Assembly: GCA_013414795.1 (NCBI GenBank)
Contig: CP058732.1
Span: 1,161,744-1,225,743, forward strand
Direction of reading: 5' to 3'
DNA from: Candidatus Kapaibacterium sp.
Lineage (GTDB): Bacteria; Bacteroidota; Ignavibacteria; Kapaibacteriales; UBA2268
Length of the DNA stretch: 64,000 nt
Shown here: piece after piece, positions 41,944-51,012 of the stretch
Position numbering within the stretch: position 1 is the stretch's first letter
Layout of the letters: the number at the start of each line of letters is the position of its first letter
The notes under the pieces: generated by a model
The model's database searches: none
Seen by the model: only the letters and a program-made list of their open reading frames with translations
Told to the model about the DNA's origin: nothing
Made by a program: the position numbers and the translations under genes

Positions 41944-43491
41944 CTAACACTTATGCAAGTTTCTATGCATTATTCTTCTGGATTCGATTAGTCTTTCCTC
42001 CTCGGGCAATGAAATTAAGCGAGAGTTCAAATCTTTGTCGTTTTCGGAAAGGAGAATCTTTGCATAGTAGTCGATAACTTTTGGTGGAAAAATGCCATCC
42101 CGTTCGTAATGATGTCGCTTTTGAAGAAGTTTCTCCGCAGATTCCACGCAACTTTTGCCAAGCACTTCCAAATCCTTTTGTAATGAATTTGGGTCATCCG
42201 TAACTTTGTAATGTTCAGCCAGTTGCAAAGAACGTTGTGGATTGCTCAATCCCCATTCTATTGCTAAAATTAAGCCAGAAAGTATAAGATGTATTAAAGC
42301 ACTACCATCTGGACTTCTAAATTCAATTGTTTGACGGTTGTCTTCATATTCCAACGTTTCGGTTTCTTGTGGATTTATTTTTTTTGCAAGGTTATTTGCT
42401 TTCGTCCAAGCCAAAGGAATTCTAATGAGCGAACTTCTATTCGACGGACTCCAACAAACTTTTGTTGGTGCTTCTTGACCTGGGACTAGGCGGAGGTAGG
42501 AAGCAGCGACTGTATTACCAAATGCAGTTAGGCTTGGTGCATAGTGGCAAAGTCCACCGATAGCCATCAAAGCCTCTTGGGATAAATTACCGCTTGGGTC
42601 TAATAGTATGTTTTTGCCATTCTTTGTCAAAGCAAGATGGAAATGCAGACCATTGCCAGCGTGTCCTGGGTCGATTTTTGGGAAAAATGTTGCAATGGAA
42701 TTGTATTGGTATGCAACGTTTCGAATAATCCAGGTTGAAAGAACAAGGTCGTAGGCAAGTTCTTCAATATCTGTTAAGTGAAATTCAATTTCAACTTGTT
42801 CTGCAGATTTTCCGCTCAATTCGGGAATTTCGCTCTGTATATTTTCAATGTAACCAACTTCGTTGTGAGAGTATTTTATTGAATTTGTAATCTTTGCAAT
42901 AATTGAGGCAATTTCGCTGACGATATGCGTTGTTTTCGCAAAGGGCGGACTGCTATGGTAACCTTGTTGTTTGCCCAAAATATACATTCTTTTGGGCATA
43001 TCGTAAATTAGATAGAATTCCAATTCCCCCAAGGCTTTTAAATTCAAACCAGTTTTGGATTTGAAATATTCATTTGCCCTTGCAAGAATGTTGTCTGGAG
43101 TGAAATTTGCTGGAATTCCATCTTTATCAAAAAAGCGACAGAAGAAATCCAAACTTTTGTTGTCAAATGGATTAATAAATGCACTTTTGTAAATTGGAAC
43201 GACATAGAGGTCGGAAGAACCAACTTCGACAATTCCCTTGAACAAAGAGGAGCCATCAACACGTTCACCGTCGGCAAGTACTGATTCAACTTGGAACTTG
43301 TTTTGTATTGGGATTTGCATTTGACGTGGCTTGCCGTCGGAGGCAACATAATGGAAAGTTATTCTTTCAAGTTGTAAAGTTTGGATAACTTTTAAAAAAT
43401 CTTTTCTTGTCCATTCATTTTTGGGTTTTCCAGTGATTGCTGATATTTGATTTTCTAAAACAAAATATAAATTTGTATTTTGCATAACCAT
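41944..43491 (-). CDS. glutamine synthetase family protein
   Basis: GS catalytic motifs GNGLHFHLAL and NRSSLIRIPL are present, with an N-terminal beta-grasp domain. At 515 aa its length is atypical. Confidence 0.7.
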   Translation of the reverse strand: MVMQNTNLYFVLENQISAITGKPKNEWTRKDFLKVIQTLQLERITFHYVASDGKPRQMQIPIQNKFQVESVLADGERVDGSSLFKGIVEVGSSDLYVVPIYKSAFINPFDNKSLDFFCRFFDKDGIPANFTPDNILARANEYFKSKTGLNLKALGELEFYLIYDMPKRMYILGKQQGYHSSPPFAKTTHIVSEIASIIAKITNSIKYSHNEVGYIENIQSEIPELSGKSAEQVEIEFHLTDIEELAYDLVLSTWIIRNVAYQYNSIATFFPKIDPGHAGNGLHFHLALTKNGKNILLDPSGNLSQEALMAIGGLCHYAPSLTAFGNTVAASYLRLVPGQEAPTKVCWSPSNRSSLIRIPLAWTKANNLAKKINPQETETLEYEDNRQTIEFRSPDGSALIHLILSGLILAIEWGLSNPQRSLQLAEHYKVTDDPNSLQKDLEVLGKSCVESAEKLLQKRHHYERDGIFPPKVIDYYAKILLSENDKDLNSRLISLPEEERLIESRRIMHRNLHKC

Positions 43492-43557
43492 TTAGAAACT
43501 TTTGTTCAACAAAAAAAGCAAGTTATGTAAAAAAAATAAAACAAAGGCTTATAATAA

Positions 43558-43926
43558 ATGGATTTGTTACAAATTCGTGAATATTGCCTTTCTAAACCTT
43601 TTGCTGTCGAGGATTTCCCTTTCGACGAAGAAACACTTGTCTTCAAAGTCTTTGGGAAAATGTTTGCCCTTGTTGATTTGTATTCAATCCCAGCGTGGAT
43701 GAATTTGAAAGTTCCTCCAGAGGATGTGGTTTACCTTGTAGAAAGGTATGACTTTATAAAACCAGGCTATCATATGAACAAAAAGTACTGGATTACTGTC
43801 CAAATCGTCGATAATATCTCGGACAATTTCTTAATGAATTTGATTGACACTTCGTATAACGAGGTGGTCAAAAAGTTGGCCAAATTTAGACAAAAGTTAA
43901 TCGAGGAAAGTTTGAAGAATGGTTAA
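43558..43926 (+). CDS. MmcQ/YjbR-family protein
   Basis: 122 aa. CLSKPFAVEDFPFDEETLVFKVFGKMFAL...KPGYHMNKKYWITV resembles YjbR/MmcQ proteins. Confidence 0.6.
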   Translation: MDLLQIREYCLSKPFAVEDFPFDEETLVFKVFGKMFALVDLYSIPAWMNLKVPPEDVVYLVERYDFIKPGYHMNKKYWITVQIVDNISDNFLMNLIDTSYNEVVKKLAKFRQKLIEESLKNG

Positions 43927-44929
43927 TCAAAGCGAAAGAGAATATTTAGCAGAAAAAATAAAAGAACATTTGGGCTGGAAGGTTAATCCTCTGCGAATTA
44001 AAATATTTACAGATACATCTGATTGGATGCGAATTGCCAGAGGAGACATTATTAGATTGAACTGTGGCGACTATCTTGTAAAGGGCAATATGCGAGAGCC
44101 AAGGTTTGGAATTGATGACCAGCCGAAATATTGGGTTTTCAATGCAATTGATTTAAAAGATAATTCAGAGAAAATAATTAAAACGGTATTTCACGAGGAA
44201 TTTTATGCTCATATTGGATTTTTAAGGATTCGTTGCTACCGAAACCCCGAAAAAGAAGGCGAAGTTCTGAAAATCGTTCAAGGGGACAAAAGATTTATGC
44301 AAGGATTTGTGTGTTTTGATGAAAAGGGCAATGCTGTGCGAATAATTGATTTCATCAAAGGTACCTCCTTTTTTAATTTTGTTCCAATGATAAATAAGAA
44401 CCACGAGGAGTATTTCTTCGAGGATTTGCCATATATTCTTTGGAAATTGAAAGAATCGTTCGAAGCGATTAATTTTTTGCACGAACACAAACTGTGTCAC
44501 GGCGATATACGAAACGACCATATTATAGTTGAAACCGAAACTGGGCTTTATCGTTGGATTGACTTTGACCTTATGCAAGATGTTTCCGACTTCGACCTTT
44601 GGAGTTGTGGTAATATTGTTTCTTACGCTGTTGCCAAGGGTTTGAAAACATTCGACCAAGTGCTTAAAGGCAATGAGTTTCCAAATGAAGTTAAATTAAG
44701 TTTGACCGCGGAGGATGCCTCGGCATTTTACAATTATCGAATTATGAATCTTAAAAAGTTATATCCTTATATCCCAATAAAATTGAACAAAATACTTCTT
44801 CATTTTACGATGAAGCCTATTGCTTTTTACAACAATATCCGTGAATTTTTGGAGGATTACACGGAAATGCTCGAAACAGAATTTCCAATAAAGGATAAAA
44901 CAAATATTGTTAAAAGAGATGAGAAATGA
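43919..44929 (+). CDS. protein-kinase-like fold protein of uncertain activity
   Basis: The catalytic-loop-like motif LCHGDIRNDHIIV and a DFG-like WIDFDL are present. It overlaps the upstream gene by 8 nt and the downstream HK start by ATGA. Confidence 0.5.
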   Translation: MVNQSEREYLAEKIKEHLGWKVNPLRIKIFTDTSDWMRIARGDIIRLNCGDYLVKGNMREPRFGIDDQPKYWVFNAIDLKDNSEKIIKTVFHEEFYAHIGFLRIRCYRNPEKEGEVLKIVQGDKRFMQGFVCFDEKGNAVRIIDFIKGTSFFNFVPMINKNHEEYFFEDLPYILWKLKESFEAINFLHEHKLCHGDIRNDHIIVETETGLYRWIDFDLMQDVSDFDLWSCGNIVSYAVAKGLKTFDQVLKGNEFPNEVKLSLTAEDASAFYNYRIMNLKKLYPYIPIKLNKILLHFTMKPIAFYNNIREFLEDYTEMLETEFPIKDKTNIVKRDEK

Positions 44930-46755
44930 ATGCAATTATCATCGGTGGTGGTAAAGGTTGCTATGCGATATTAAAGTTACTTCGAGAGAAGCCAATCAAG
45001 GAATTGAATTTGCAAGTGCTTGGTGTTGTCGATATCAATCCAGAAGCAGAAGGTTTGAAATATGCTAAAGAATTGGGTTTGAAAACATTTTCAAACTATA
45101 AAGAAGCATTGAATTCTTTGGATGTAGAGGTTGTAATTGAATTAACTGGTAACAACGAATTCGTGAAAAAATTAAAACAAGAGTTAAGCCCAGAAATAAA
45201 ATTAATAGAACACTCGATTGCTCATATTTTCTGGGATTTAATGTATGCACACGAGGAACTCGATAAAAAAATAGAGGATTTACAAAGGCTTGAAAAAGTT
45301 ATCGAAAACGATAATGTTTTCTTGAAGTCAATCTTCGATAGTTTTCAAGATTTAACAGTAGTTATGGATTTAGAACAGCGAATTACTCGGGCAAACAAAG
45401 CCTTTTGCGAATTTGTGGGTTTACCAGAAGAGAAAGTGATTGGGCAAAAATGTTATCATTTATTGGAGATTGCTGAAATAAATTGTGATAAAAAAGGTTT
45501 GGAAGAAATAATTAATTACATCAAAGAAACAAAAAAACCGCATACGATGGTTCATTACTCTGCACAGCCAAAAGAATCTTATTGGGAAGTAACTCGTTCT
45601 CCTATTTTTGATGTACAAGGCGAAGTGAAGTTTATTCTATCTAACTGGCATAGGATAACAGAACTTGTGTATTTAAAGCGGGAAGTTGAAACGCTTGAAC
45701 AAAAATTGAAGAGTTTTATTAATAATGCCCAAGACTGGATTAGTATGAAAAACCTTAATGGTGAATACATTCTTGTAAATCCAGTTATTGCAAAAGCATT
45801 TGGAAAGCAACCAGAGGACTTTATTGGGAAAAAACCAGAAGATGTTTTACCAATGAAAATTGCACAAACCGTGAAAGCACACGACAGCGAAGTTCTTCGC
45901 ACGGGGAAAGCAATCCTTTACGACGAAACTATTACGCTTAACGGGGAAGAACATTATTTTCGTATGCTTCGGTTTCCACTTACCGATTCCCAAGGTAAAA
46001 TCATCGGAACTTGTACGATTGGACGGGATGCAACGAACGAAATTCAATTAATGGAGAAATTGGTGCAAAGCGAAAAACTTGTTGCTCTTGGAAAACTTGC
46101 CGCAGGCGTTGCCCACGAAATCAATAATCCGCTTACTGGAATTCTTTCTTATGCAGAGAGTATTTCAGAAGAATTGGACAAGGACAATCCATTGCAAGAA
46201 GACATTGCAATTATTATTCGTGAAACGCTACGCTGTCGGGATATTGTTCGAAATCTCCTCGATTTTGCAAAGCAAAGCACACCCAAATTCGAAATAGTAA
46301 ATCCAAATTCAATTATTAAACAATCGTTAGATTTGATCAGCCGTTTACCACAGTTTAAGGATATTGAAATCGAAGTCCTTCTCGATGAAAAAGTTCCCCA
46401 GATAAAAGCCGATGCAAAGCAAATACAGCAAGTCATACTCAATTTCTTGATAAACGCTGCTGATGCTATGAAATACAAGGGAAAGATAACTATATCGACC
46501 GAATATTATCGCCAGCAAAAGAAGTGTATCATTTCGGTTGAGGATACTGGTCCTGGTATCCCAGAAAATCTAATGGACAAAATTTTCGAGCCATTTTTCT
46601 CGACCAAAAGTACAAGTGGTTTAGGACTGGCTGTGAGTTGGGGAATTATCGAGCGACACCACGGAACAATTGAGGTCGACACTGCACCATCGGGGGGTGC
46701 AATATTTAGGATACTTCTCCCAGCATATTTTGAAATTGTTGATAAATTGGAATAA
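44926..46755 (+). CDS. cytoplasmic sensor histidine kinase: N-terminal Rossmann (Gfo/Idh/MocA-like NAD(P)-binding) domain, two PAS domains, HisKA, HATPase_c
   Basis: N-terminal IIIGGGKGCYAILKLL...LQVLGVVDINPEAEGLKYAKELGL...SNYKEAL...VEVVIELTGNNEF. The H-box is VAHEINNPLTGI, and the ATP lid has DTGPGIP and GLGLAV. No TM segments. Confidence 0.85.
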   Translation: MNAIIIGGGKGCYAILKLLREKPIKELNLQVLGVVDINPEAEGLKYAKELGLKTFSNYKEALNSLDVEVVIELTGNNEFVKKLKQELSPEIKLIEHSIAHIFWDLMYAHEELDKKIEDLQRLEKVIENDNVFLKSIFDSFQDLTVVMDLEQRITRANKAFCEFVGLPEEKVIGQKCYHLLEIAEINCDKKGLEEIINYIKETKKPHTMVHYSAQPKESYWEVTRSPIFDVQGEVKFILSNWHRITELVYLKREVETLEQKLKSFINNAQDWISMKNLNGEYILVNPVIAKAFGKQPEDFIGKKPEDVLPMKIAQTVKAHDSEVLRTGKAILYDETITLNGEEHYFRMLRFPLTDSQGKIIGTCTIGRDATNEIQLMEKLVQSEKLVALGKLAAGVAHEINNPLTGILSYAESISEELDKDNPLQEDIAIIIRETLRCRDIVRNLLDFAKQSTPKFEIVNPNSIIKQSLDLISRLPQFKDIEIEVLLDEKVPQIKADAKQIQQVILNFLINAADAMKYKGKITISTEYYRQQKKCIISVEDTGPGIPENLMDKIFEPFFSTKSTSGLGLAVSWGIIERHHGTIEVDTAPSGGAIFRILLPAYFEIVDKLE

Positions 46756-46757
46756 AT

Positions 46758-47534
46758 ATGGAAAATAGTAAAATCAAAATTTTAGTTATAGACGATGAGC
46801 AAATTGTACTCGATAGTATAAAACGTCTTTTGAAAAAGGACGAAAATTATATTATCGAAACTGCACTTTCAGCAATGGAAGGTTTAGCAAAAGTTGATGA
46901 GTTCAAACCAAATGTCATTCTCACTGATTTGATGATGCCAGAAATTGATGGCTTGGAATTGCTGAAAAAAGTTAAAGAAAAGGACGAAAAGATTTTTGTG
47001 ATAATGATTACTGGCTATGCAACAATTAATACAGCACTTCAAGCGATGCAACTTGGGGCTTTCGACTACATTGCAAAGCCATTTACTCGTGAAGAGTTGA
47101 GACGAGTCATTGAAAGGGCTGCAAGTTTGGTTGAAGTGCAAAAAACTTCTCAAATTAAGTCTCCATTGCAAAATGAAATTATTGGAAATATTCAAGGAAT
47201 TGGTCAATATTCTTGGTTGATGATGAATGACGAAGGGCTTGTCGTTTTGGGTGTCGAAAGAGCTTTTCTTTATTCAGTGGGAAAAATACAAACTGTGTAT
47301 TTGCCATCTGCTGGGGACGAAATTAGGCAAGGTAGCGTTTTTTTCCAAATATTTTCTTCGGATTTGCGTACCCAATCGATTTATTCTCCTCTTTCGGGTA
47401 CTGTTGTCGAAGTAAATGAAAAAGTTTTGGCTAATCCAGAACTCGCAGCACTCGACCCTTATGGCGAAGGTTGGTTGATTAAAATAAAACCAAGCAACTT
47501 TGAAGATGATATGAAAACACTTGGATTACTTTGA
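46758..47534 (+). CDS. response regulator: CheY-like receiver domain fused to a glycine-cleavage-H-protein-like (lipoyl-domain fold) C-terminal domain lacking the lipoyl-lysine
   Basis: The receiver has KILVIDDE...ILTDLMMPEIDG...KPF. The C-terminus SIYSPLSGTVVEVNEKVLANPELAALDPYGEGWLIKIKPSNFEDDMKTL aligns with GcvH (...VKAASDIYAPVSGEVVEVN...SPELVNSDPYGEGWIFKIK), but Leu replaces the lipoylated Lys. Confidence 0.8.
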   Translation: MENSKIKILVIDDEQIVLDSIKRLLKKDENYIIETALSAMEGLAKVDEFKPNVILTDLMMPEIDGLELLKKVKEKDEKIFVIMITGYATINTALQAMQLGAFDYIAKPFTREELRRVIERAASLVEVQKTSQIKSPLQNEIIGNIQGIGQYSWLMMNDEGLVVLGVERAFLYSVGKIQTVYLPSAGDEIRQGSVFFQIFSSDLRTQSIYSPLSGTVVEVNEKVLANPELAALDPYGEGWLIKIKPSNFEDDMKTLGLL

Positions 47535-48585
47535 TTTTATGAAAGAAGCAATACTTTATGAAGTAATAGATGACAATACTAAAGAAGTTGAATGTAAACT
47601 TTGCAGTCATTATTGTAAGATAAAAAATAACTATGGTGGAATATGCCGAGTGCGTTTCAATCACAATGGAGTTCTCTATTCCTATACTTATGGAAAGGTA
47701 GATGGGGTTGCAATCGACCCAATCGAAAAAAAGCCATTCTATCATTTTAAACCAAAGAGCAGAGTCTTGTCGTTCGGAACCCCTGGATGCAATTTCAAAT
47801 GTGCAAATTGTCAAAATAGTTATCTTTCACAATCAATTAAATTGAAGCCAGACCATTTGCTTGTCCAAGAAACTATACCACCAGAGGAGATTGTAAGACT
47901 TGCAGAAAAGTATGATGTCGATGGAATTTCGTATACATATTCTGAACCAACAATTTTCTTTGAATATGCAAGGGATATCATCTTGAAATGCAAAGAAAAT
48001 CCAGGAACCAGGAATTTAGTACATCTTTTCGTTTCGAATGGATATTTCAGCAAGGAAATGCTACAAATTGTTGTCGAAGAACAACTACTTGATGCTATTA
48101 ATATAGACTTAAAATTTATTGACGACCAAAAATATTTAAAGATAACTGGTGGACATCTTAAGCCTGTTTTGGATAGTATTGAACGGGTATTTTCGGCAAA
48201 CATTCATATGGAGATAATCAATCTTGTCATTCCTGGAGAAAACGATACCGACGAGTCTTTCTCGAAAATTTCTGAATTTATTGCAAATTTGTCGAAAGAT
48301 ATTCCTTTGCATTTCAGCAGATTTTATCCTCAATACAAAATGACAACCAAGACGCCGACGCCCTATTCGACATTAATCCGTGCAAAGGAAATTGCGGAGT
48401 CCTACGGTTTAAACTTCGTTTATATTGGAAACACTGATATTCCAAATGCTGAAAATACATATTGTCCCAATTGCAAATTTTTAGTTGTTGAACGTGAAAG
48501 ATATTTAACAAATGTAAATTATTTTGTGGAAAATGGGAAAGCAAAATGTCCAAAATGTTTAGAAACATTGCCTATAGTTGTTTAG
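47521..48585 (+). CDS. AmmeMemoRadiSam-system-type radical SAM enzyme (PFL-activase-like)
   Basis: The N-terminal AILYEVIDDNTKEVECKLCSHYCKIKNNYGGICRVRFNHNGVLY has a Cys-rich zinc-ribbon-like segment. The radical SAM cluster motif GTPGCNFKCANCQNSYLS (Cx3Cx2C) is present. Confidence 0.8.
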   Translation: MDYFDFMKEAILYEVIDDNTKEVECKLCSHYCKIKNNYGGICRVRFNHNGVLYSYTYGKVDGVAIDPIEKKPFYHFKPKSRVLSFGTPGCNFKCANCQNSYLSQSIKLKPDHLLVQETIPPEEIVRLAEKYDVDGISYTYSEPTIFFEYARDIILKCKENPGTRNLVHLFVSNGYFSKEMLQIVVEEQLLDAINIDLKFIDDQKYLKITGGHLKPVLDSIERVFSANIHMEIINLVIPGENDTDESFSKISEFIANLSKDIPLHFSRFYPQYKMTTKTPTPYSTLIRAKEIAESYGLNFVYIGNTDIPNAENTYCPNCKFLVVERERYLTNVNYFVENGKAKCPKCLETLPIVV

Positions 48586-49733
48586 TGATTGTTCTGTTTT
48601 ACCTTTTGATGGTTAGTAAAAGCGGAACATTATATGCCCAATGGCCTGCGATGAAGACAGATGCAGATAGTCTTGTGCGGTTGGGTGCAGACTACATTTA
48701 CAATATGGAATTTGATAAAGCCGAACAGTGCTTCAAGCAAGTTATAGAAAAATATCCAGAACTTCCCGCTGGATATTTTTTGAATGCAATGGTGGATTGG
48801 TGGAAAATTGTTGCATTTCGCAATTCCCAAGAATTCGACAAGTCTTTTCTTGAAAAAATTGACCGAACAATCCAAGTTTGCGACAGAATACTCGATACTA
48901 ATGAATTCGAATTGAGTGCTTTGTTTTTCAAAGGCGGTGCGATTGGATATCGAGGTCGATATCACGCAATTCGTGAAAACTGGTTTCGTGCTGCCAACGA
49001 TGGTTATTCGGGTTTTAAAATATTGACGAAATGTCTTGAAATTGCCCCAAACAATTACGACATTATGCTTGGTACTGGTGTTTATAACTATTTCGCCGAG
49101 GTTCTTCCTTCGGAAAATCCCGCTTTAAAACCATTGATGCTTTTTCTTCCCAAAGGTGATAGAAAACTTGGAATATTACAACTTCAAGCCTCGGCAAAAT
49201 ATGCTCGATATGCAAATGTCGAGGCAAAATTGGTGTTGTTGCAAATTTTTAACGATTTCGAAAAAGATTACTATTCTGCATACACAATTGCAAAGGAATT
49301 AGTTGAGAAATATCCCAACAATCCAGTTTTTCAGCGATATTATGGTAGGACGCTTGTCTCGCTCTACTATCTTGACGAATGGGAAAAGCATTGGAAAATG
49401 ATACTTAATTGGTACGAGCAAAAAAAGCCTGGTTTCGATGTTGCAACTGCCAGAGAGGCAATGTATTACATTGGCAGTGCTTTGTTTGAACAAGGACGCT
49501 ACGACGAGGCTTTATCATATTTCTACAAATGTGATGAATTTTCACGTAAGTTAGATAAGAATGGTCCTTCGGCTTTTATGATTTACCTAAACTTAAAAGT
49601 TGGAAAAATATACGACCTTCAAGGTAAACGAAATTATGCAATTATGCAATATAACAAGGTCCTTTCTTGGAAAAATTATCGAGATTCCCACGAACAAGCA
49701 AAAAAATACCTCCAAACTCCATATACAAGGTAG
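48555..49733 (+). CDS. secreted TPR-repeat protein
   Basis: A signal-like N-terminus (IAYSCLVIVLFYLLMVSKSGTLYAQ) is followed by TPR-like helical repeats. The start is uncertain (48546, 48555 or 48609), and it overlaps the rSAM gene end. Confidence 0.6.
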   Translation: MFRNIAYSCLVIVLFYLLMVSKSGTLYAQWPAMKTDADSLVRLGADYIYNMEFDKAEQCFKQVIEKYPELPAGYFLNAMVDWWKIVAFRNSQEFDKSFLEKIDRTIQVCDRILDTNEFELSALFFKGGAIGYRGRYHAIRENWFRAANDGYSGFKILTKCLEIAPNNYDIMLGTGVYNYFAEVLPSENPALKPLMLFLPKGDRKLGILQLQASAKYARYANVEAKLVLLQIFNDFEKDYYSAYTIAKELVEKYPNNPVFQRYYGRTLVSLYYLDEWEKHWKMILNWYEQKKPGFDVATAREAMYYIGSALFEQGRYDEALSYFYKCDEFSRKLDKNGPSAFMIYLNLKVGKIYDLQGKRNYAIMQYNKVLSWKNYRDSHEQAKKYLQTPYTR

Positions 49734-49770
49734 ATTTTTTAATTTTGAAATTTTGCAAAATTTTTTTCCG

Positions 49771-51012
49771 ATGGTAAGACTTTTACTATGCTTTTTGATT
49801 TTGTGTATTAGTTGCACGACCGAAGTTTTTCCCAAGGTTGGCTACCAACAAAAAATTCTTCTTGGTATTGATGTTTTAGTTCGTGATGATTTTAAAATAC
49901 TTTATGGGAAAAGAGTTGGGTTGCTAACGAATTCGGCAAGCCGTTCTTCATCGAAAAAAATGACTGTGGAGTATTTCGTAAACAATCCCAAATTTACTTT
50001 AAATGCAATTTTCACCCCAGAACACGGATTTTTTACAACCGTTCCTGCTGGCAAGTATGTTCCCGACGATAGCCTATATGGGGTTCCAATCTTTTCGCTT
50101 TATGGAAATAATCGAAAACCAACTCCCTACCAAATGTCTCTGGTTGATATCGTTGTTGTAGATTTGCAAGATATAGGAGTACGTTCCTATACTTTTATTA
50201 GCACTCTTTACAAAGTTATGGAAGCCTGTGCAGATGCAAATATTCCGCTCGTTATACTGGACCGTCCCAATCCGCTTGGTGGAAATCTTGTTGATGGCAA
50301 TGTGCTTGAACCGCAATGGGCTTCATTTGTGGGAATTGTTCCAATTCCATATTTGCACGGCTGTACTATTGGCGAAATTGCTTTTATGATAAATGAAGAA
50401 GGCTGGCTGAAATCCAACGGAGTAACGAAAAAGTGTGATTTAACTATTGTTAAGATGGAAAACTGGAAGCGACAAATGAATTGGGAGGATACCAATTTGG
50501 AATGGTTCCAAACTTCACCCAACATAAAGAGTGTTGACGCTATACGTGGGATTGCTATGTTTGGTGTGCTTGGCGAGTTGGGACTTTTTAATTTAGGTGT
50601 TGGTACTGACTTGCCCTTCCAAGTTTTTTCAATTCGAAATGTGAATGTGAAAAAGTTGGAAAAGTTAGTTTCTGAATTAAAGTTTGATGGCGTTGCTTTC
50701 ATAAATAAAGAGAAACAAAAGCATTTAGAAAAAGAGCACAATAGTTTTTTGATTAAGTTTGCAAAAAACAAAGAATGTAAATACTATACTTTTGGTATGA
50801 CTTTGTTGTTTGAAATTCGGAAGGCTTTTCCACATTTATTTTCTTATGAACGACTTAAGTCGAGAAGAATAGAAATGTTCAAAAAAGTAACTGGAACAAG
50901 CGTTTTGTTCGATAGTTTAATTCAAGGAGATGAAACCGAATACTTTAATTATTTAAACAAAGGATTGGATGAATTTTTAAAACTTCGCTCTAAATATCTA
51001 TTATATAAATAG
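49771..51012 (+). CDS. DUF1343-family protein (NamZ-like exo-beta-N-acetylmuramidase family)
   Basis: The signal or lipoprotein start is MVRLLLCFLILCISC. The family motifs are DIGVRSYTFISTL and LVILDRPNPLGG. The track ORF starts at 49600 inside the previous gene, so 49771 is preferred. Confidence 0.7.
   Translation: MVRLLLCFLILCISCTTEVFPKVGYQQKILLGIDVLVRDDFKILYGKRVGLLTNSASRSSSKKMTVEYFVNNPKFTLNAIFTPEHGFFTTVPAGKYVPDDSLYGVPIFSLYGNNRKPTPYQMSLVDIVVVDLQDIGVRSYTFISTLYKVMEACADANIPLVILDRPNPLGGNLVDGNVLEPQWASFVGIVPIPYLHGCTIGEIAFMINEEGWLKSNGVTKKCDLTIVKMENWKRQMNWEDTNLEWFQTSPNIKSVDAIRGIAMFGVLGELGLFNLGVGTDLPFQVFSIRNVNVKKLEKLVSELKFDGVAFINKEKQKHLEKEHNSFLIKFAKNKECKYYTFGMTLLFEIRKAFPHLFSYERLKSRRIEMFKKVTGTSVLFDSLIQGDETEYFNYLNKGLDEFLKLRSKYLLYK

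Follow-up and report, generated by a model that had tools for sequence, protein, structure and literature searches.

We analysed a 64,000-nucleotide stretch of the Candidatus Kapaibacterium sp. genome (contig CP058732.1, positions 1,161,744 to 1,225,743; hereafter the window, with coordinates counted from its first letter) and found that the gene at 46758-47534 (+) encodes a response regulator of 258 amino acids (aa), built of a receiver, a variable linker and a lysine-less output domain with the fold of the glycine cleavage H protein (GcvH). This order follows from the open reading frame and its translation, together with the Pfam matches to Response_reg and GCV_H. The regulator is the last gene of a triad, conserved in the clade of the window and in sister clades, whose first two genes encode a kinase-like protein (PKL) and a histidine kinase. 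The receiver and GCV_H families are already known; what is new here is an undescribed class of response-regulator output within an undescribed triad. We propose, with about an even chance of being right, that the regulator is switched by phosphorylation and that its effector is a lipoate-free H-protein fold re-purposed for binding other proteins.

Judging from its sequence, the regulator belongs to the two-component response regulator family (PF00072), with acidic pocket, acceptor Asp, switch residues and Lys all in place. The receiver (REC) domain (residues 8-118; 46779-47111, +) matches Response_reg with an expectation value (E) of 5.6e-31. Its phospho-switch is intact, as D12, D13, D57, T85, Y104 and K107 are invariant in an alignment of 16 regulators, and the receiver holds every residue needed for phosphotransfer. 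D57, the predicted phospho-acceptor (codon 46926-46928, +), is invariant in these 16 sequences and also in a set of 99. The alpha4-beta5-alpha5 face of the receiver, ITGYATINTALQAMQLGAFDYIAKPF, is almost invariant across the aligned regulators. An AlphaFold2 model built on the 99-sequence alignment had a mean predicted local distance difference test (pLDDT) score of 87.7; a model from the 16 sequences gave a pLDDT of only ~40 in the C-terminal domain and was discarded. In the retained model the receiver reaches pLDDT 73-96 per ten-residue block, and Foldseek against the PDB matched it to the receivers of NtrC1, NtrX and CheY at a root-mean-square deviation (rmsd) of ~1.5 Å. The linker (about residues 131-146; 47148-47195, +) is variable, with no conservation in the alignment, and is predicted to be disordered (pLDDT <50 at residues 133-144). 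Neither a DNA-binding nor an enzymatic domain was found in the regulator by Pfam and NCBIfam scans.

A first-pass annotation, made from the sequence of the window alone, had read the protein as a receiver fused to a GcvH domain, and Pfam bears out both halves. The output domain (residues 150-253; 47205-47516, +) matches GCV_H (PF01597) at 77 bits (E 1.4e-21), where the gathering score is 22.2. The match covers profile positions 6-108 of 122, so the alignment runs, as had been claimed, along essentially the whole GcvH fold, the one element lacking being the C-terminal helix of true GcvH. In a phmmer search of the PDB the C-terminal 116 residues matched 13 solved H-proteins, the best being those of T. 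maritima (2ka7/1zko, E 2-3e-15). Seven database GcvH sequences with the ESVKA turn share 35-37% identity with the domain. It is modelled with pLDDT 87-97 per ten-residue block over residues 151-250. The model superposes on the E. coli H-protein (3ab9/3a7l) with an rmsd of 1.2-1.3 Å over 103-111 columns and a target-normalised TM score of 0.76-0.80 (Foldseek); for 3ab9, 3a7l, 1zko and 3klr together the ranges are 1.2-1.6 Å and 0.76-0.81, and the H-proteins of T. maritima, cattle, Thermus and man are also among the PDB matches. Several GcvH segments are kept, namely (S/A)PxSG, VN, PEL, DPYGxGW and the W of HEW, while GVERAFL stands where GcvH has GITDYAQ. In most members of the family the output domain is mildly acidic (isoelectric point, pI, 4.4-5.9); charge was considered as a way of separating it from true GcvH and was set aside as not discriminating.

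By sequence and by fold the output domain is thus a member of the GCV_H fold family. It is not an equivalog of GcvH, because the NCBIfam GcvH models score it below their equivalog or subfamily cut-offs (TIGR00527, 70.9 bits against 115.85; NF002270, 75.4 bits against 117). Score, absence of the lysine and lack of gene association (see below) all speak against a functional glycine cleavage H protein. The regulator is 100% identical to QLH53809.1 and MEJ5286484.1 of Candidatus Kapaibacterium sp., both of which GenBank calls 'Glycine cleavage system H protein'; this name is a mis-annotation.

The site of the lipoyl-lysine turn of GcvH (ESVKA) is occupied in the regulator by a hairpin with the motif F199-S-S-D-L-R204 (47352-47369, +), located by translation, model and conservation. 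No lysine occurs between residues 177 and 221, the nearest being K176 and K222, and therefore no alignment register can place a lysine on the hairpin; the alternative register that could have restored one is ruled out. Consequently the canonical carrier function is excluded by the hairpin sequence, in agreement with the earlier statement that the domain cannot be a lipoyl carrier. The same annotation had described a replacement of the lysine by Leu, which holds as to the loss of the lysine in any register; the exact equivalent is ambiguous, since the loop of GcvH is shorter by one residue. MAFFT sets the GcvH lysine opposite L203, whereas HMMER introduces a one-residue insertion and sets it opposite D202 or a gap. 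In the model the strands comprise residues 194-200 and 205-209, and the turn is S201-D202-L203-R204.

Conservation of this hairpin argues against decay. Within the subfamily of the window (121 members) F199 is present in 121/121, S200 in 119/121, D202 in 119/121 and R204 in 118/121, position 201 is variable and position 203 is L, M or F; none of the 121 has a lysine at 202 or 203. Together, the domain matches and the missing lysine go far past anything that chance would produce. The motif FSxD[L/M]R is found in ~117/121 relatives. In the wider family the position equivalent to R204 is basic in 75 of 103 sequences (R 47, H 16, K 12), so that the recurring feature is a basic-tipped hairpin and not a lysine at the canonical site. 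The hairpin has not decayed but has been re-purposed to a near-invariant motif, and the word 'degenerate', which had been applied to the output domain, is misleading.

Relatives of the regulator number more than 1,400 (1432 hits) at 90% clustering. The best 120 are nearly all REC + GCV_H proteins of 256-263 aa from metagenome-assembled genomes (MAGs) of Kapaibacteria, Ignavibacteria, Bacteroidota and Zixibacteria. Identity across phyla is 54-62%, and ~65 positions, including the whole receiver switch, are invariant; family-specific invariants in the output domain are E167, R168, Q178, D187, F199, S200, D202, L203, R204, K253 and G256. This identity across phyla and these invariant positions, hairpin included, point to selection on the output domain and not to decay. 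A phmmer search with the C-terminal domain alone against 1.84 billion cluster representatives gave 4,418 hits. The subfamily of the window came first, followed by dozens of clusters of 250-290-aa REC-GcvH-like proteins at 30-43% identity, whose turns vary and include ESVKA in none, and true GcvH appeared only from about E 1e-12 to 1e-13.

The search for other receiver-GCV_H architectures that the first-pass annotation had proposed was made with a profile of diverse members. At least 3,915 clusters were found to share the REC-GcvH-like architecture, all of them from MAGs or metagenomes, with Deltaproteobacteria, Planctomycetota, Acidobacteriota, Aminicenantes, Eisenbacteria and others among the sources. 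In the sources these proteins go under no name but 'response regulator' or the erroneous 'glycine cleavage system H protein'. The automatic name given by JGI, 'CheY-like chemotaxis protein/glycine cleavage system H lipoate-binding protein', indicates that the architecture has been seen by annotation pipelines and left uninterpreted. NCBIfam has no dedicated model for it, and full-text literature searches turned up nothing on receiver-GcvH fusions, which agrees with the earlier remark that such fusions are poorly characterised.

We compared gene order across 30-odd loci, and the only genes that travel together are those for PKL, the histidine kinase and the regulator. In the window the triad is tightly packed, with a 4-nt overlap between the PKL and histidine kinase genes and a 2-nt gap between the histidine kinase and regulator genes. 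The three genes are adjacent in Zixibacteria (L001, L002, L009, L083/84), in unclassified MAGs (L003, L004), in Abyssobacteria (L006) and in Planctomycetota (L007), as well as in L088, L093 and L097-L099; in L091 two genes are inserted. In all, PKL lies adjacent to or near the regulator at 15 loci from several phyla, and PKL identity between triad loci is 45-65%. The triad is kept even where the sensor region of the kinase has been swapped (a membrane sensor in L004 and L006) and where the hairpin motif differs (LTDDQR in L093). The histidine kinase is syntenic with the regulator in nearly all the loci compared. The co-occurrence check suggested earlier thus singles out PKL and the histidine kinase as conserved companions in the window clade and its sister clades. 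None of the gcvP, gcvT, lpd and lipoate-ligase families was found in ~24 distinct neighbourhoods (gene neighbourhoods, not whole genomes; about half were covered by Pfam tables and the rest by homology search only).

PKL (336 aa; 43919-44929, +) was recognised from a weak Pfam Pkinase match (E 4e-5), a profile search of the PDB and a set of invariant motifs. Its homologue in L088 scores 35 bits with Pkinase, above the gathering score, and the PDB profile search found remote CAMK-type kinases (best E 4e-6). The core comprises K88, E113, the catalytic loop H194-G-D-I-R-N-D-H201, D215-F-D and D226-x-W-S-x-G-N, all invariant or nearly so. At the position of the catalytic-loop Asn (HRDxxxxN) stands a His, H201, that is invariant. 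The spacing between DFD and DxWS is ~6-8 residues, compared to ~30 in STK17A, and PKL must therefore lack an activation segment and a P+1 loop. PKL is accordingly a remote Hanks-type kinase, in which Lys, Glu, HxD, a DFG-type motif and DxWSxG are found and the Asn and the activation segment are not.

Lack of an activation segment is shared with kinases of the Bud32, RIO and Kdo types, which are minimal or atypical kinases or ATPases. By score PKL lies outside Bud32, Kdo and APH (TIGR03724 Bud32, E 0.086; Kdo and APH, E 0.06-0.18), and it is set apart from the minimal kinases by H201 and by a family-specific N-terminal region. This region carries the invariant motif DT..W..I ... G...E.RFGI..QPK.WVF. 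Pfam and NCBIfam both lack a family of their own for PKL; some members are labelled Bud32 (JGI) and one 'aminoglycoside phosphotransferase family' (NCBI). The PKL family gave 1052 hits from the same taxa as the regulator, a size comparable to the 1432 hits of the regulator family, and at least 15 PKL/regulator pairs lie on the same longest contig.

The cognate histidine kinase (609 aa; 44926-46755, +; Pfam PAS_4, PAS_9, HisKA and HATPase_c) consists of an N-terminal Rossmann-like domain (residues 1-110), two PAS domains, HisKA with H397 (codon 46114-46116) and HATPase_c, the last two making up a complete core. The Rossmann-like domain (44926-45255, +) contains a glycine-rich GGGKGC motif (IIGGGKGC...ELTG) and recurs in 7 of the 10 cognate kinases in the alignment. 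It has only weak database matches, to GFO_IDH_MocA (E 5.6e-4, below the gathering score) and acetaldehyde dehydrogenase (E 0.27). This domain may provide a cofactor-sensing input; since the resemblance to NAD-binding proteins is weak, a redox or nucleotide input is a guess. At one locus (L093) a gene for a Rex repressor lies divergently upstream, an anecdotal observation.

In the mechanism we favour, the Rossmann-PAS-PAS histidine kinase would sense an intracellular signal, possibly related to redox state or a nucleotide cofactor, and would phosphorylate D57 of the regulator. Phosphorylated D57 would change the alpha4-beta5-alpha5 face and thereby shift the presentation or availability of the flexibly tethered GcvH-fold domain. 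This domain would then bind or release a protein partner through the surface of the FSxDLR hairpin, with the fixed R204 standing in for the swinging lipoyl-lysine arm. If docking occurs through the hairpin, the output of the regulator would be protein-protein, neither DNA binding nor catalysis. PKL would be the likeliest partner or co-regulator in the lineage of the window, so that an atypical kinase or ATPase would be placed under His-Asp signalling, although we regard direct partnership between PKL and the regulator as doubtful. We also put forward, tentatively, an undescribed three-component module of regulator, PKL and usually a Rossmann-PAS kinase, in which an ancient swinging-arm cofactor carrier may have been exapted to phosphorylation-gated 'arginine-arm' docking that would switch an atypical kinase or ATPase and, elsewhere, a domesticated transposase-derived zinc-ribbon protein. 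The suggested range of this module, with the same reserve, is uncultured Kapaibacteria, Ignavibacteria, Bacteroidota, Zixibacteria, Planctomycetota and Abyssobacteria MAGs.

Several observations weigh against our proposal. PKL synteny shows a functional link and not direct binding. Bacteroidota-type loci (L081/82, L087, L089) have no adjacent PKL (in L089/L090 one contig carries both genes at a distance of 34 kb), and a zinc-ribbon/Mutator-like gene stands directly 3' of the regulator in loci of this type. Distant REC-GcvH-like regulators (L008, L095, L096, L101, L104) occur with other kinases (HAMP, Cache) and without PKL nearby, so the fold must be capable of working where PKL is missing, and what it targets in general may be a component of the cell whose gene is not nearby. 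Several of the invariant residues, S200 among them, are kept in true GcvH as well for structural reasons, and therefore part of the conservation is uninformative about function. Finally, the domain-to-domain arrangement in the regulator model is unreliable (predicted template modelling score, pTM, 0.64; pLDDT <50 in the linker).

The zinc-ribbon/Mutator-like protein has 381-393 aa, combines an InsA zinc-ribbon with a Mutator/MULE-like region, ends in KCEMK(I/L)DKCSLF and is 63-72% identical between loci. Its gene was located in four lineages (L082:9027-10172, L087:8793-9968, L088:8905-10086 and L089:8802-9947) and is absent from the window; L088 carries both PKL and this gene. It looks like a syntenic domesticated transposase and is another candidate for the partner of the regulator. 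A 395-aa gene upstream of PKL in L090 was also considered and set aside, as it is unrelated to everything else in the locus set.

Having kept so much of GcvH, the output domain might act on glycine cleavage or lipoylation themselves. As a mimic or decoy, the lysine-less domain would dock on the P-, T- or L-protein, on LplA/LipB/LipM/LipL or on lipoyl synthase, and would competitively throttle glycine cleavage or lipoylation in a phosphorylation-dependent manner, by analogy with PhyR, whose output domain mimics a sigma factor. The complete fold at 35-37% identity and 1.2-1.4 Å rmsd, the signature segments, the mildly acidic pI and the GlnA, AsnB, GDH and aminotransferase genes near the regulator in the window are all compatible with such a role. 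But those nitrogen genes are not kept in other lineages, the hairpin is one residue longer, the chemistry of its tip is altered (D-L-R), the helix motif GITDYAQ is changed to GVERAFL and the C-terminal helix is lost. In addition to the absence of gcvP, gcvT, lpd and lipoate-ligase families from the neighbourhoods, the window contains no second GcvH, and no riboswitch (glycine included) or other Rfam element was detected near the operon. We therefore consider mimicry unlikely. The two functions first guessed for the domain, a docking module and a substrate mimic, fare differently in this light: docking fits the genomic evidence better, because the synteny with the kinase-like protein and the histidine kinase is conserved and no link to gcv or lipoylation genes was seen, and mimicry fits it less well, the functional part of both being something that we infer.

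Self-association would account for the unusually conserved alpha4-beta5-alpha5 face, at which many response regulators dimerise on phosphorylation. The GcvH fold would then drive phosphorylation-dependent di- or oligomerisation, as a scaffold, or the protein would serve as a phosphate sink or connector, and the hairpin would recognise no separate target. Barrel-sandwich hybrid domains are common packing modules, and tandem REC-GcvH-like paralogues beside one kinase (L008, L101, L104) recall branched phosphorelays. However, a passive scaffold needs neither a near-invariant exposed hairpin nor ~25 family-specific invariant positions across phyla, and one architecture has been maintained in at least 3,900 clusters, which makes this explanation improbable.

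The former cleft of the lipoyl arm could also bind a free metabolite (lipoate, octanoate, an aminomethyl-type ligand or a nucleotide), which would make the C-terminal domain a second input. Retention of the H-protein architecture, the invariant polar residues E167, R168, D202 and R204 that could line a pocket, a variant with 4Fe-4S domains (P0405) and, as a redox hint, cytochrome and hydrogenase genes beside distant members are in line with such a small-molecule sensor. It would leave the regulator without an output domain, though signalling like that of a stand-alone receiver would be possible, and the literature searched offers no precedent for ligand binding by free H-protein folds; we judge it quite unlikely. 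Equally remote is a covalent modification at a non-lysine residue of the hairpin, with S200/S201 phosphorylated by PKL or R204/D202 ADP-ribosylated, for although S200, D202 and R204 are nearly invariant, the co-encoded PKL has its catalytic Asp, DFD, Lys and Glu intact, some sister clades have a Lys at the R204-equivalent position (DGKTH) and GcvH-L, reportedly ADP-ribosylated, would be a precedent for a second modification on an H-protein fold, PKL has neither the activation loop nor the P+1 loop with which peptide substrates are normally bound, a Ser equivalent to S200 is present in ordinary GcvH (ESVKA) and needs no special explanation, and distant REC-GcvH-like subfamilies have no PKL.

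Protein docking under receiver control, the reading we prefer, has precedents among known systems. Unusual outputs are common in response regulators, and in PhyR (a sigma-factor mimic), RssB and CheY a canonical receiver drives an output that binds proteins and is neither DNA-binding nor enzymatic. PhyR is the nearest conceptual precedent, its output being a degenerate version of a protein that does something else; RssB was among the Foldseek matches of the regulator, through its receiver. In contrast to these three, an H-protein or barrel-sandwich hybrid output was not found described for response regulators in the literature searched. The regulator shares with GcvH (PF01597, TIGR00527/NF002270) the fold and the (S/A)PxSG, VN, PEL and DPYGxGW motifs; unlike GcvH, it is fused to a receiver, has FSxDLR for ESVKA, lacks the lipoyl lysine and the C-terminal helix, and shows no linkage to gcvP, gcvT or lpd.

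Beyond ordinary GcvH, the GcvH-L protein is a target of ADP-ribosylation by the SirTM/macrodomain system. H-protein folds recruited outside glycine cleavage, as here, are represented by LbpA of the sHdr sulfur oxidation pathway (PMC6067878) and by GcvH-L of the SirTM/macrodomain operon (PMC4518038, PMC12440151). In Firmicutes the GcvH-L gene lies beside those for the ADP-ribosylating sirtuin SirTM and a macrodomain protein (PMC4518038, PMC11490716), and GcvH-L is described as a lipoic acid carrier that promotes oxidative-stress resistance (PMC12440151). LbpA and GcvH-L are described as lipoate-binding proteins or lipoic-acid carriers, whereas the regulator cannot be lipoylated at the canonical site and is controlled by a receiver.

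Response regulators are classed by their output domains, and a lipoyl-carrier fold was not found described as one, yet it is present in thousands of clusters from many phyla of bacteria that are for the most part uncultured. The family offers a clean example of exaptation, in which a cofactor-carrying swinging-arm domain lost its cofactor site and apparently gained a new, strictly conserved hairpin under phospho-control. D57, R204 and PKL provide handles for finding what lysine-less GcvH-fold domains bind. The recurring mis-annotation as 'Glycine cleavage system H protein' would also inflate reconstructions of glycine cleavage in MAGs.

On the + strand of the window the triad is part of a longer run of genes in the order YjbR-like (43558-43926), PKL, histidine kinase, regulator, radical-SAM (47521-48585) and TPR (48546-49733), in which neighbours overlap or stand a few bases apart. 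From 43300 to 50271 this strand showed no terminator-like site. The scans for promoters and terminators did not rise above background; 28 promoter-like sites were counted where 26.6 are expected. The radical-SAM enzyme belongs to the AmmeMemoRadiSam system (TIGR04337, 303 bits against a cut-off of 220). If its TTG start is used, its gene overlaps the 3' end of the regulator gene by 14 nt; neither an AMMECR1 nor a Memo gene was present in the ~20-kb Pfam-annotated stretch around it. The radical-SAM and TPR genes were considered as partners of the regulator and rejected, as they are unsyntenic outside Kapaibacteria.

A glutamine synthetase of 513-523 aa (Gln-synt_N + Gln-synt_C) is encoded near the regulator both in the window (41944-43491, -) and at an unrelated Bacteroidota-type locus (L087:12252-13823). 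AsnB, GDH, aminotransferase IV and OTCase genes are also nearby. This proximity may be a coincidence and is not seen in most loci. A defence-system assignment of the triad was rejected, since PADLOC gave only weak cross-hits to kinase and receiver and no credible match.

Two pattern scans contributed few loci to the comparison. Among 80 loci found on contigs with receiver-derived peptide patterns, 72 were unrelated regulators and only L001-L009 were usable, and a metagenome scan with C-terminal patterns returned mostly true GcvH through the shared DPYGxGWL, the subfamily being represented by L097-L100 only. Longer REC-GcvH-like variants include P0405 (442 aa), with 4Fe-4S cluster domains after the GcvH-like domain, and P0140 (445 aa). 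Short and long REC-GcvH-like paralogues are encoded in tandem behind one histidine kinase at L008:8990-9790, L101:6109-7323 and L104:9193-10524. Arrays of two or three lysine-less GcvH-like proteins of ~150-250 aa without a receiver occur on metagenome contigs (L107:5124-9495, L150:790-2985 and L153:693-2323), and P0126 (1,391 aa) is a multi-repeat example with three copies of a lysine-less GcvH-like repeat. Loss of the lipoyl lysine in the GcvH fold is therefore not confined to response regulators.

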